Origin: a plasmid
NCBI RefSeq assembly: GCF_988243305.1
Contig: NZ_OZ547142.1
Length of the DNA: 1,549 bases
Strand: one strand, 5' to 3'
Below are positions 1 through 1,549 of the stretch, one piece after another. The notes below the pieces were generated by a model. That model did not search any database, was not told where the DNA came from, and worked only from the letters and a program-made list of their open reading frames with translations. Numbering within the stretch: position 1 is the first letter of the stretch; each line of letters opens with the position of its first letter. The position numbers were made by a program, and so were the translations under genes.

Positions 1-196
1 CACTGGTCAACAAAGACGGTGATATTCAGCGCCGAATCATGGCCATGTTTTCAAATTGAGCTAGCGGCAGGCGGACAATCAGGGGCTACGTGTTAACGTT
101 CTGACCATGATTGTCTATCCTGCATTGCTCTTTTGCCGCCTCAAAATCCTTTGCGTGTTTTTGCTCCCCGTTCTCCAGAAAAAACCGAGCCGCCAC

Positions 197-250
197 GGTT
201 CCGGCAGCGCCTTGAGCGCTACCGGAAACCGTCTGGGGAGAACCCCAGAC
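197..250 (+). other. Two adjacent GC-rich hairpins in the non-coding region
   Basis: Hairpin A: TTCCGGCAGCGC (199-210) pairs with GCGCTACCGGAA (216-227), 11/12 with a C205/A221 mismatch, loop 211-215. Hairpin B: GTCTGGGG (231-238) pairs perfectly with CCCCAGAC (243-250), loop AGAA. Confidence 0.5.
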
Positions 251-326
251 CCCCATCGCTGCAACACCGACGGTCTACGACCACCTACCAACCGCATGGC
301 TGCCTGTTCCGTGCAAATGGGCTTTG

Positions 327-350
327 CAGGGGGCTGGCGCGGTTCCTGGC
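327..350 (+). other. Candidate ColE1-type origin motif (G-run plus GGTTCCTGGC), i.e. possible RNA primer to DNA transition region
   Basis: CAGGGGGCTGGCGCGGTTCCTGGC shares CAGGGGG and the 10-mer GGTTCCTGGC with the pMB1 ori region (...GTCAGGGGGGCGGAGCC...ACGGTTCCTGGCC...) in the same orientation as the two stronger matches downstream. Spacing differs from pBR322, so this is tentative. Confidence 0.25.
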
Positions 351-524
351 GACCTGAAAGCCCCTGGTTAGGGGTATCGGCGCGCTTGACCTCCTGAGAG
401 CCTCTGTAAGCGTTTTTCGCGCCTTCCATGCCCTGGCGGGCATCTAAAACCCGTTTCGTGCGTCTGAGAGCTTTTGAGCGCGTTTGAGGGGCTATCTGGC
501 GACTCATCCCCAAAAGAACAACAC

Positions 525-558
525 CGGGATCACAGACAACATGCGAGAGGTGATCCCG
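525..558. other. Hairpin (9-bp stem, 16-nt loop) abutting the conserved backbone segment
   Basis: CGGGATCAC (525-533) pairs perfectly with GTGATCCCG (550-558). Confidence 0.5.
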
Positions 559-626
559 CTCGCCGCAAGTCGATGACCGAGCGTAGCGAGCGAATCGACG
601 AGGAAGCGGAAGAGAACCGGAAGCCA
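551..626 (+). other. Conserved ColE1-family origin-distal backbone segment (region where pMB1-type plasmids carry primosome assembly sites)
   Basis: TGATCCCGCTCGCCGCAAGTCGATGACCGAGCGTAGCGAGCGAATCGACGAGGAAGCGGAAGAGAACC aligns by eye at about 75% identity to the reverse complement of the pUC/pBR322 stretch ...CTTCCGCTTCCTCGCTCACTGACTCGCTGCGCTCGGTCGTTCGGCTGCGGCGAGCGGTATCAG... That orientation is RNAII-sense. Confidence 0.55.
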
Positions 627-680
627 CATTGAGCACTTACGCACTGATGCGGGGTGTCGGGGTGAAGCCCTGACCAAGTG

Positions 681-727
681 GTAATCGTATCGGCGTGCAT
701 GCGCGGTTATACGATTACACATCCTGT
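681..727 (+). other. Perfect 10-bp inverted repeat followed by a CATCCTG|T motif (IncP/MOBP-type nic consensus YATCCTG|Y); candidate relaxase recognition site
   Basis: GTAATCGTAT (681-690) and ATACGATTAC (709-718) are perfectly complementary, with an 18-nt spacer containing GCATGC. CATCCTGT at 720-727 begins 2 nt after the proximal arm, putting the putative nick (726/727) 8 nt from the repeat. An 8-mer of this kind can occur by chance. Confidence 0.3.
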
Positions 728-839
728 CCCGATTTCTGAGGCGTTTTAACGGTGAACGGACGGCAAAAACACGATGGAGCTGTTGAACGTGAAAACCACG
801 AAATCTGGCAAAAATCACGGCTGGCGAGGCTTGCATAGG

Positions 840-902
840 TGTAAGCCAGTATACACTCCGCTATCGCTACGTGACTGGGTCAGGGCTTCGCCCCGACACC
901 CC
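840..902 (-). other. ColE1/pMB1-type bom (oriT) nic region homolog; predicted nick on the minus strand
   Basis: The + strand GCCAGTATACACTCCGCTATCGCTACGTGACTGGGTCAGGGCTTCGCCCCGACACCCC (845-902) is near-identical to the pBR322 bom segment as I remember it (GCCAGTATACACTCCGCTATCGCTACGTGACTGGGTCATGGCTGCGCCCCGACACCC). The complementary strand carries ACTGG|CTTA, which I recall as the ColE1 nic sequence; this places the nick between the complements of 846 and 845. Confidence 0.6.
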
Positions 903-935: not shown

Positions 936-997
936 CTAGAATAGATCTTTTACGCCGATTTGTAAGTGGTTGTTTTTTTAGTGTGTTTTTTATTTAC
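936..997. other. AT-rich tract with T-runs between the GC-rich backbone and the operator sites
   Basis: Sequence GATCTTTTACGCCGATTTGTAAGTGGTTGTTTTTTTAGTGTGTTTTTTATTTACC has T7 and T6 runs. Composition changes abruptly here relative to upstream. Confidence 0.5.
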
Positions 998-998
998 C

Positions 999-1046
999 TG
1001 TCGCATCCTGGATGACACAACGTTGTCGCATCCAGGATGCGACAAC
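999..1046. promoter_or_regulatory. Two tandem palindromic operator-like sites (25-bp period) immediately upstream of the -35 region
   Basis: Copy 1 (999-1021, TGTCGCATCCTGGATGACACAAC) and copy 2 (1024-1046, TGTCGCATCCAGGATGCGACAAC) match at 20/23 positions. Copy 2 lies in a perfect 25-bp palindrome (1022-1046, 12+1+12, centre A1034). Copy 1 is an imperfect palindrome around T1009. Core of each is CATCC-N-GGATG. Confidence 0.55.
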
Positions 1047-1048
1047 AC

Positions 1049-1063
1049 GCAACAAGGTGTTGC
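1049..1063. other. Short hairpin (6-bp stem, 3-nt loop) overlapping the putative -35 hexamer
   Basis: GCAACA (1049-1054) / AGG loop / TGTTGC (1058-1063), perfectly complementary arms. Confidence 0.4.
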
Positions 1064-1089
1064 ACAGATGTGTCATGATGGCTTAGATT
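1060..1089 (+). promoter_or_regulatory. Putative sigma70-type promoter for the rep-like ORF
   Basis: TTGCAC at 1060-1065 (5/6 to TTGACA), 18-bp spacer, TAGATT at 1084-1089 (4/6 to TATAAT). Position is appropriate, about 45 bp upstream of the ATG. Hexamer assignment is by eye only. Confidence 0.3.
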
Positions 1090-1117: not shown

Positions 1118-1124
1118 AGAGGGA
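1118..1124 (+). promoter_or_regulatory. Shine-Dalgarno sequence for the 1132 ORF
   Basis: AGAGGGA contains GAGG at 1119-1122, 9 nt upstream of the ATG at 1132. Confidence 0.6.
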
Positions 1125-1131
1125 AAAAATC

Positions 1132-1549
1132 ATGTTTATTGATTCAGAAAAACGACTGAAACAACTTTCAGATGAGGCAAAGAAAAACACCGAGGATCTC
1201 GAAGAAGCAAAGAAAAATTCAAGGTTTACACAGGTATCCCCAAAAGGTTGGGAACGTGTTCGAGAGCTGCTGAAGGATAGCCAAGGCATATCAGCACTGA
1301 AGCTGTACTCATTTTTAGCGGAGCATATCGATCCTACGTGTGGCGCTGTCGTTGCGGATCAGCAATTCCTAGCTGAAAAACTTGGAGTTAGCAGAAGCAC
1401 AATTATTCGGTGGCTCAATTACTTAGAATCAAAAAATGCATTAGTTAGAATCCCCGTTGCTGGTAAGGTTTGTGCGTATGCCCTCGATCCACATGAAGTC
1501 TGGAAGGGATACAACACTACGAAAAACCATGCAGCGTTTGTCACTAAAA
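1132..1549 (+). CDS. Partial ORF (3' end beyond window) encoding a winged-helix DNA-binding protein with RepL-like replication-initiator architecture
   Basis: ATG at 1132 is the first start after an in-frame TGA at 1090-1092 and is preceded by AGAGGGA at 1118-1124. 139 codons read without a stop to the window end, which is presumably why it is absent from the ORF track. Translation begins MFIDSEKRLKQLSDEAKKNTEDLEEAKKNSRFTQ (charged, K/E-rich) and continues ...ISALKLYSFLAEHIDPTCGAVVADQQFLAEKLGVSRSTIIRWLNYLESKNALVRIPVAGKVCAYALDPHEVWKGY. The helix-turn-helix followed by G-x-hydrophobic-x-A-L-(N/D)-P-x-E pattern matches my recollection of staphylococcal pSN2-type RepL (Pfam RepL family). Family assignment is from memory, not a search. 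Confidence 0.6.
   Translation, partial: MFIDSEKRLKQLSDEAKKNTEDLEEAKKNSRFTQVSPKGWERVRELLKDSQGISALKLYSFLAEHIDPTCGAVVADQQFLAEKLGVSRSTIIRWLNYLESKNALVRIPVAGKVCAYALDPHEVWKGYNTTKNHAAFVTK

Follow-up and report, generated by a model that had tools for sequence, protein, structure and literature searches.

The 1,549-nt stretch of DNA analysed here (the window) is a copy of the Escherichia coli cryptic plasmid pKL1, which is already known. The open reading frame that runs to the last base of the window consists of codons 1-139 of repA, the only gene of this pKL1-type plasmid, whose replication is highly likely to be initiated by RepA at upstream operators with an IHF site, and with the N-terminus of RepA probably taking part in specificity. 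As stated, this finding adds little, since pKL1 and RepA were described and biochemically studied decades ago. A single result may be new: the operators of related plasmids covary with the N-terminal module of RepA.

Plasmid identity and gene content

We found 2,256 PLSDB records that match the window by megablast. The best 20 of these 2,256 records cover positions 1-1549 at 99.5-99.7% identity and are nearly all circular and 1,549 bp long. Most of the matches listed are split in two pieces because the records begin at another base, and MOB-suite types the replicon of these plasmids as Col(MG828). Since the matches run end to end, the window is a whole small plasmid opened in its own gene; the PLSDB matches and the translation of the circularised window agree on a complete circle of 1,549 bp linearised within repA. 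Hence, the feature is the RepA of a pKL1/Col(MG828) plasmid, a one-gene circle of about 1.5 kb.

Relative to pKL1 (NC_002145), with which it agrees in length and layout, the window has 12 nucleotide differences, all of them non-coding. Three of the 12 (positions 1009, 1016 and 1034) are within the operator repeats, and at these three positions other modern 1,549-bp records share the bases of the window. The same 1.5-kb plasmid recurs in hundreds of sequenced genomes of E. coli, Shigella and Klebsiella, the O104:H4 outbreak strain among them. For the outbreak strains of O104:H4, the 1,549-bp pG plasmids have been described as cryptic, with repA as the sole encoded gene (PMC3486847), and pKL1 (1,549 bp) is used as an example of a small natural plasmid in PMC12839544.

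The first-pass annotation had proposed a RepL-like plasmid replication initiator that starts at the ATG at 1132. Our translation equals the peptide that it quoted, and the frame is open to the last base; instead of being cut off by a contig end, the gene runs on across the junction of 1549 and 1 and ends with a TGA at 57-59. The annotation had also named, as grounds for giving up its reading, an end of the frame shortly after the window in surroundings foreign to replication; the gene does end 59 nt on, but in a full replication context. The same 477-nt coding sequence is unbroken in the annotation of the PLSDB records. RepA has 158 aa (17.96 kDa, pI 9.2) and is 100% identical over 158 aa to pKL1 RepA (WP_000469298.1), which bears out the initiator reading; the suggestion of an unusual replicon, in the sense of an unknown one, falls away because the replicon is pKL1. 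The NCBI product name for RepA is 'HTH domain-containing protein'. According to the primary pKL1 papers, RepA is reportedly both initiator and autorepressor. The coordinates of the features are collected in Table 1.

Table 1. Features of the 1,549-bp plasmid, in window coordinates
Feature	Position	Strand	Basis or remark
repA, rest of codon 140 to codon 158 and stop	1..59	+	circularised translation
Second segment with ColE1 homology, colinear with the bom match	556..614	+	83% over 60 nt, ColE1-like plasmid L005, 2348-2406
IncI/IncK-type oriT-like sequence, including ACATCCTGTCCCG	650..735	+	92% over 86 nt to a stretch beside nikA of an IncK2/Z plasmid
ColE1-type bom/oriT-like sequence, including GTGTATACTGGCTTA	842..902	-	98% over 60 nt to a 6.6-kb ColE1-like plasmid
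G+C-rich hairpin, 13-bp perfect stem, 3-nt loop	905..933	.	inverted repeat I9; upstream border of control region
A+T-rich tract, 30% G+C	936..998	.	G+C content; directly upstream of the repeats
IHF-like site AAACAACCACTTA, 1 mismatch	963-975	-	pattern match, within the A+T-rich tract
Operator/origin repeat 1, imperfect palindrome TGTCGCA-TCCTGGA-TGACACA	999..1019	.	repeat families D1, I3; half-site search
Operator/origin repeat 2, perfect palindrome GTTGTCGCATCC-A-GGATGCGACAAC	1022..1046	.	inverted repeat I13; half-site searches
Putative repA promoter, -35 TTGCAC 1060-1065, -10 TAGATT 1084-1089	1060..1089	+	by eye; weak
Shine-Dalgarno-like GAGGG	1119..1123	+	8 nt upstream of ATG 1132, read from sequence
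repA codons 1-139 and first base of codon 140	1132..1549	+	translation; identity to WP_000469298.1
Hypervariable N-terminal module, predicted single charged alpha-helix, codons 3-26	1138..1209	+	AlphaFold2
Winged helix-turn-helix core, codons 37-118	1240..1485	+	predicted recognition helix 88-100, wing 104-118

Hence, repA is the only supported gene of the 1,549-bp replicon. Open reading frames at 107-397 (plus strand), 504-836 (minus) and 115-636 (minus) had no Pfam matches, and we rejected them as genes on that ground and because their region is missing in small relatives. Positions 60-650 are 58% G+C, hold no supported gene and are missing from relatives of 1,230-1,306 bp. The first-pass annotation had recommended a look at the neighbourhood for phage structural or partition genes, and none was found on the complete 1,549-bp replicon, where the other open reading frames have no family matches.

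By sequence identity to nick regions, the remainder of the plasmid appears to carry both a ColE1-type and an IncI-type oriT. The counterpart of 842-902 in the ColE1-like plasmid is an interval on the ori side of rop, and 842-902 is matched by thousands of mobilizable plasmids. The two oriT-like sites have a 29-nt block in common, which accounts for the long inverted repeat 651-679/874-902. Hence, the typing of the plasmid as 'mobilizable' and its thousands of partial database matches are due to the two oriT-like sites.

Fold and family of RepA

RepA passed the Pfam family HTH_36 (PF13730) with 35.1 bits over residues 54-101 (cut-off 25) and missed RepL (PF05732) with 18.0 bits (E 0.0022; gathering cut-off 20.3), and no NCBIfam model for RepL (replication/maintenance protein RepL) was among its matches at E <= 10. 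S. aureus RepL scores 242 bits against PF05732. The profile check that the first-pass annotation had recommended hence upheld the winged helix but not RepL membership.

RepA belongs to a family of 692 clusters (90% identity, E <= 0.001), almost all on contigs of 1-4 kb, with 351 representatives at 50% identity. HTH_36 was matched by 42 of 48 diverse members and PF05732, at E <= 0.01, by 33 of the 48, and seven of ten distant homologues passed the PF05732 cut-off (20.4-33.9 bits). When the RepA family was aligned by hhalign with five plasmid RepL proteins, we found a probability of 97.5% (E 8e-12) over 100 columns; RepA 29-137 pairs with S. aureus RepL 35-134, and the motifs on either side of the helix-turn-helix are included. 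The similarity of the profiles extends beyond the helix-turn-helix itself, as for members of one RepL superfamily. Judged by these profiles, RepA is a remote homologue of Firmicute RepL, though it fails the curated membership test, so 'RepL-like' stands as a statement of remote homology only. The tie between RepA and the RepL superfamily could improve the annotation of Col(MG828) replicons, which are now labelled only by the generic product name.

AlphaFold2, run on an alignment of 48 sequences, gave a model of RepA with a mean pLDDT of 85.8, in which helix 3-26 is followed by a winged helix (helices 37-47, 50-64, 77-84 and 88-100; strands 72-76, 104-110 and 113-118) and by three short C-terminal helices. 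The model agrees with the first-pass annotation in placing a winged-helix core after the N-terminal segment. PDB searches with the single RepA sequence and with a profile returned only generic HTH regulators (E >= 0.01). RepA is, as modelled, a single winged-helix domain without a nuclease domain.

The N-terminal segment is charged, as had been noticed, with 8 K/R and 8 D/E in residues 1-32 (50%), and blocks of helix 3-26 are predicted with pLDDT 77-92. We found a charged N-terminal segment in all members of the RepA family, down to about 30% identity; it is poorly conserved, with indels, whereas residues 34-158 are highly conserved. Across the family, the N-termini are 40-54% charged, with a net charge near zero and about four strongly hydrophobic residues. 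By a simple in-house score of heptad a/d occupancy by strongly hydrophobic residues, taken in the best register, RepA reached 0.43 and the 23 family N-termini 0.12-0.43, compared with 0.80 for the GCN4 zipper. The RepA N-terminus does not have the hydrophobic a/d positions over at least 3-4 heptads that mark a coiled coil, and we take it to be a charged helix rather than a canonical coiled coil, whereas the first-pass annotation had called it likely coiled. Nor does it make RepA longer than RepL: the RepL of S. aureus plasmid p9b (WP_000664727.1) also has 158 aa and a single winged helix at the same position. Hence, nothing has been added to the N-terminus of RepA.

Operators and the N-terminal module

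Between 85 and 135 nt upstream of the ATG are two tandem 25-bp repeats, which consist of 7-bp arms TGTCGCA around a 7-bp spacer. Repeat 2 is placed 25 bp after repeat 1 and contains an inverted repeat of 12+12 nt with 100% complementarity, and exact TGTCGCA arms occur three times within 46 bp. Hairpins analogous to the one at 905-933 occur in relatives. The IHF pattern search was not above chance within the window alone; relatives carry the perfect IHF consensus AATCAATAACTTA at the same position, and the IHF-like site gains weight only because of this conserved position. A search of the window for DnaA boxes was at chance level, with no box standing out. The region has a theta-type layout: the two tandem palindromes span 999-1046, next to a tract of 30% G+C (936-998) with an IHF-type site whose position is conserved across relatives.

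Upstream of repA, a scan of the window for sigma-70 consensus promoters found none. The putative promoter of Table 1 has a counterpart in the relative L012 (TTTACG/TATATT), and an operator-like TGTTGCA at 1058-1064 overlaps its putative -35. PMC3832669, which cites Burian et al., locates the oriV of pKL1 on the upstream side of rep; it also lists an IHF box, several sites bound by Rep and a perfect inverted repeat of 16 bp.

Relatives were collected from PLSDB, from contigs of database homologues and from one metagenome scan, which used a degenerate pattern for the invariant PVAGKVCAYALDPHEVWKGY segment and gave 70 loci. The pooled loci of the relatives comprise 87 gene copies and 23 distinct variants. 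The hairpin, the AT/IHF tract and the two-repeat layout were present in 11 of the 11 relatives whose upstream regions were inspected, and two tandem repeats at about -122 to -137 were found by script in 22 of the 23 variants and by eye in the other (L034). What the whole family has in common is limited to rep and about 230 nt on its upstream side, and relatives of 1,230-1,306 bp have only rep in common with the window at the DNA level.

We found that the arms of the repeats differ widely between variants (Table 2). Their inner 'CA' is almost invariant, and the first copy of the palindrome is imperfect in several lineages.

Table 2. Operator arms among the variants
Arm	Variants
TGTCGCA	window, L028
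TGTTGCA	L021, L022, L023, L049, L099
TGTAGCA	L055
TAGCTCA	L012, L024
CACGACA	L030, L077
TACGACA	L047
(A)TGACA	L026, L015
(C)GGACA	L013, L039, L069
TGAGACA	L034
GCGGAAG	L071

The inner arm bases follow the start of the recognition helix of RepA. Where residues 88-89 are R-S or R-T, the inner arm bases are GCA or TCA, and where they are T-R, I-R or R-R, the inner arm bases are GACA or GGAA; this rule had no exception in about 18 variants. The covariation may go back to no more than one or two evolutionary events. The outer arm bases, in contrast, do not follow the recognition helix. L018 shares its recognition helix with the window, residue for residue, but its arms are TAGCTCA and those of the window TGTCGCA; L017, whose RepA is identical to that of the window from residue 70 to the end, also has TAGCTCA arms. 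Across about 23 variants, RepA residues 70-158 are nearly invariant while the operators differ between plasmids.

The relative L017 is a mosaic of natural origin: 178 consecutive informative sites, from -154 to codon ~82, follow the L012 type, and the sequence from codon 83 on and into the 3' flank follows the window type. Within the swapped block, the amino acids that distinguish the two types are all in residues 1-69. In this mosaic, the operator type goes with the N-terminal ~80 codons. Since the same recognition helix occurs with unlike arms, either the operator determinant is in the N-terminal part of RepA or the N-terminus hitch-hikes with the operator.

Across the 23 variants, no convincing code was found by which residues of the N-termini would specify the outer arm bases. 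Both lineages with TAGCTCA-type arms have proteins that begin MY(I/L)G(T/S)E, which is the only hint of such a code. Judged by these comparisons of sequence, the N-terminal module (residues 1 to ~69) probably has a part in the specificity for origin and operator, and through it in incompatibility, and may have one in oligomerisation as well.

Mode of initiation and known systems

In the mechanism that we propose, RepA dimers would use the recognition helix to bind the palindromes and would repress the repA promoter, tentatively the one at 1060-1089, where TGTTGCA lies over the -35. At the origin, a higher-order assembly of RepA, together with bending by IHF, would open the adjacent A+T-rich tract, after which the host helicase, primase and polymerase would be recruited. 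The N-terminal module would tune specificity, oligomerisation or both. Origin recognition could be in two parts, a reading that we put forward tentatively and short of calling it probable: the recognition helix would read the inner CA (GCA/GACA), and the N-terminal module, mainly helix 3-26 and the extreme N-terminus, the outer 4-5 bases. If so, operator, promoter and the first ~80 codons would form a swappable cassette for specificity and incompatibility. Such a cassette would explain the coexistence of many distinct pKL1-type mini-plasmids in Enterobacterales, and would offer a very small, tractable system in which to study change of origin specificity and escape from incompatibility.

The N-terminal helix might instead be purely an element of oligomerisation, for example of the reported hexamer, with its link to the operator due to hitch-hiking of adjacent codons by recombination; we regard this, too, as a real possibility that falls somewhat below an even chance. 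Hexamerization of pKL1 RepA is named in the title of a paper (Burian 2003) cited in PMC3832669, and helix 3-26 is predicted with good confidence. The block swapped in L017 is contiguous, from -154 to codon ~82, and does not narrow the determinant below residues 1-69, which suits hitch-hiking, as does the failure to read a residue-to-base code. Against a role in oligomerisation alone, the helix is without the heptad pattern of hydrophobic residues (a/d 0.12-0.43 versus 0.80 for GCN4) and is hypervariable while the rest of RepA is nearly invariant, which would be unusual for a self-association surface. Moreover, unrelated arms occur despite identical recognition helices, which points to a determinant within residues 1-69.

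The other alternatives concern the replicon as a whole. The pSN2/RepL plasmid group is traditionally classed with plasmids that generate single strands, and RepA, as a remote homologue of Firmicute RepL, might initiate rolling-circle replication, with the palindromes as a nick site or as hairpins, which the perfect palindromes in the origin could extrude. We consider this improbable: RepA has none of the marks of an HUH initiator (His-hydrophobic-His, catalytic Tyr, nuclease fold), as it has no H-x-H motif, with histidines only at 65, 121 and 133, and is predicted to fold as a simple winged helix, without a nuclease domain. The imperfect first palindrome of several lineages fits graded binding of protein better than a hairpin, and an A+T-rich tract, an IHF site and repeated sites are the layout typical of theta origins. 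Still less probable is that RepA is only a transcriptional regulator, as its NCBI product name could suggest, and that the plasmid replicates from a ColE1-like RNA-primed origin in its G+C-rich half. ColE1-homologous segments are present at 556-614 and 842-902, and one record has a 41-aa 'replication protein' annotated on the minus strand, at window positions 504-629. However, the ColE1 matches are bom/oriT and a short flanking piece rather than an origin, the small open reading frames have no family matches, and relatives of 1,230-1,306 bp do without this half. Rfam at E <= 1 found no RNAI or other family in the window; the search of the window and pKL1 gave only two chance-level matches and no plasmid RNA. 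The literature describes these plasmids as RepA replicons (PMC3832669, PMC3486847).

The first-pass annotation had linked the frame to the RepL of P1, so that the window might be a fragment of a phage-plasmid with a P1-type lytic initiator. We give this almost no credence. The weak RepL similarity (18 bits) is in its favour, as is the occurrence, in the replication module of Vibrio phage 1.233.A, of a homologue (44% identity) that adjoins a primase/helicase gene. However, the 1,549-bp window closes to a complete circle and has one supported gene, and the matching E. coli 'phage' records are 1.4-1.9 kb, the size of plasmids; for this window, the full-length plasmid matches refute a phage-plasmid fragment. 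In addition, P1 RepL matches no Pfam family, PF05732 included, and hhalign gave only 15% probability over 59 columns between P1 RepL and the RepA family. P1 RepL is an unrelated protein that shares the name. The preferred reading is initiation by RepA at its operators and the IHF site.

Firmicute RepL resembles RepA in build. The motifs that flank the winged helix correspond (NF.K.Y in RepA and F.QVY in Firmicute RepL; NP..L.rG.D.K..Y and NP.EVWkG...K..A.F, respectively), although pairwise identity is only 24% over 78 residues. The first ~30 residues cannot be aligned, being a charged helix in RepA and a Y-K-G...ETGE.I.VD segment in RepL, and the hosts are Enterobacterales for RepA and Firmicutes for RepL. 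P1 RepL has 281 aa, with oriL inside repL, and matches no Pfam family; P1 RepL and the RepA family are alike only in name and in a generic helix-turn-helix resemblance. Hence, phage P1 RepL should not be counted as a relative of Firmicute RepL.

The winged-helix region of RepA (39-116) resembles PHROG 270 'replication initiation protein' (lambda O type; E 1.2e-6) and PHROG 186 (DnaD-like loaders; E 1.9e-4), and in Vibrio phage 1.233.A the RepA homologue occupies the initiator slot, upstream of the primase/helicase gene. Phage winged-helix initiators carry additional C-terminal domains and reach 300-380 aa, while RepA amounts to the DNA-binding module by itself, and the repeats are upstream of the gene in the pKL1 type but inside the gene in phage initiators of the lambda O type. 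In lambda O, the N-terminal part covaries with its own origin repeats.

The iteron initiators of the Rep_3 type (pi, RepE and RepA of pPS10) are winged-helix proteins that repress themselves at an inverted repeat, with an AT-rich tract and an IHF site adjoining. RepA of pKL1 would function similarly, with autorepression at an inverted repeat near an AT-rich/IHF region. RepA had no Rep_3 match in Pfam, and the architecture differs: RepA has one winged-helix domain and two tandem palindromes, whereas the Rep_3 type has two domains and arrays of direct iterons.

RepA relatives and the N-terminal helix

We found a RepA homologue in Vibrio phage 1.233.A (36.8 kb), with 44% identity over residues 5-144, and its gene occupies the initiator slot, immediately upstream of a primase/helicase gene. 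Because the annotated start of this gene (position 7052 of L100, the locus collected from the phage) falls inside the tblastn match that opens at 7001, the annotated version may lack its N-terminus. In addition, three 'Escherichia phage' deposits in the phage collection encode a pKL1-type RepA, two of the three at 100% identity; these plasmid-sized records look like small-plasmid contigs that were filed as phages.

The N-terminal coding region of repA holds a 17-nt direct repeat (GAWGARGCAAAGAAAAA), with the copies 30 nt apart. Since the two copies encode DEAKKN and EEAKKN, the charged helix seems to have undergone an internal duplication here. The RepA homologue P0005 (89% identity) agrees with the window RepA save for a short stretch of the N-terminal helix, residues 19-37, which in P0005 is KEKHRGSRRSKEEFKVYTGI and appears out of frame, with the frame restored afterwards. 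This stretch suggests that the N-terminal helix segment tolerates drastic change.

Repeated and embedded replicons

In metagenome contigs, we found head-to-tail repeats of pKL1-type rep, with periods of 1,549, 1,552 and 5,609 bp, and rep also lies within 7-13-kb contigs, beside other DNA; so the pKL1-type replicon also serves larger plasmids or multimers.

Positions of features in the window, unless another sequence is named
Feature	Position	Strand	Remark
96-aa 'hypothetical protein'	107-397	+	annotated in some records
41-aa 'replication protein'	504-629	-	annotated in some records
ColE1-homologous stretch	556-614
Transfer-origin-like sequence, IncI/IncK type	650-735	+	adjoins nikA in matching plasmid
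Transfer-origin-like sequence, ColE1 bom type	842-902	-
Inverted repeat	651-679 / 874-902
Differences from pKL1 reference, upstream hairpin	918-920, 928
Differences from pKL1 reference, operator repeats	1009, 1016, 1034
17-nt direct repeat	1171-1187, 1201-1217
RepA homologue, Vibrio phage 1.233.A	L100 7001-7453 = MG592597.1 27081-27533		tblastn match
'Escherichia phage' records	OR844798.1; OR844749.1; OX638291.1		1,626; 1,423; 1,949 bp
rep copies, locus L061	935, 6544, 12153
rep copies, locus L088	1381, 2933, 4485
rep copies, locus L031	2562, 4111
Further loci with repeated or embedded rep	L040, L044-L046, L095

Variable positions and small ORFs

Of the 12 window differences from the 1990s pKL1 reference, the operator repeats account for three and the hairpin upstream of them for four, seven in all, and at the three operator positions modern 1,549-bp records carry the window base. 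The differences may stem from genuine variation or from errors made when the old reference was sequenced. Neither small ORF had a Pfam match, and their region is missing in the smallest relatives; both are probably annotation artefacts of the G+C-rich stretch.

Transfer-origin-like sequences and ColE1 homology

The IncI/IncK-type and bom-type sequences share a 29-nt block and are oppositely oriented. Because one plasmid carries these two different transfer-origin-like sequences, two kinds of helper may mobilise this 1.5-kb plasmid, which has no mob gene. Colinear with the bom match is a 60-nt stretch with 83% identity to a ColE1-like plasmid, and about 130 extra bases, the IncI-type oriT among them, separate the two matches. 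In ColE1-type plasmids, the corresponding interval contains a primosome assembly site.
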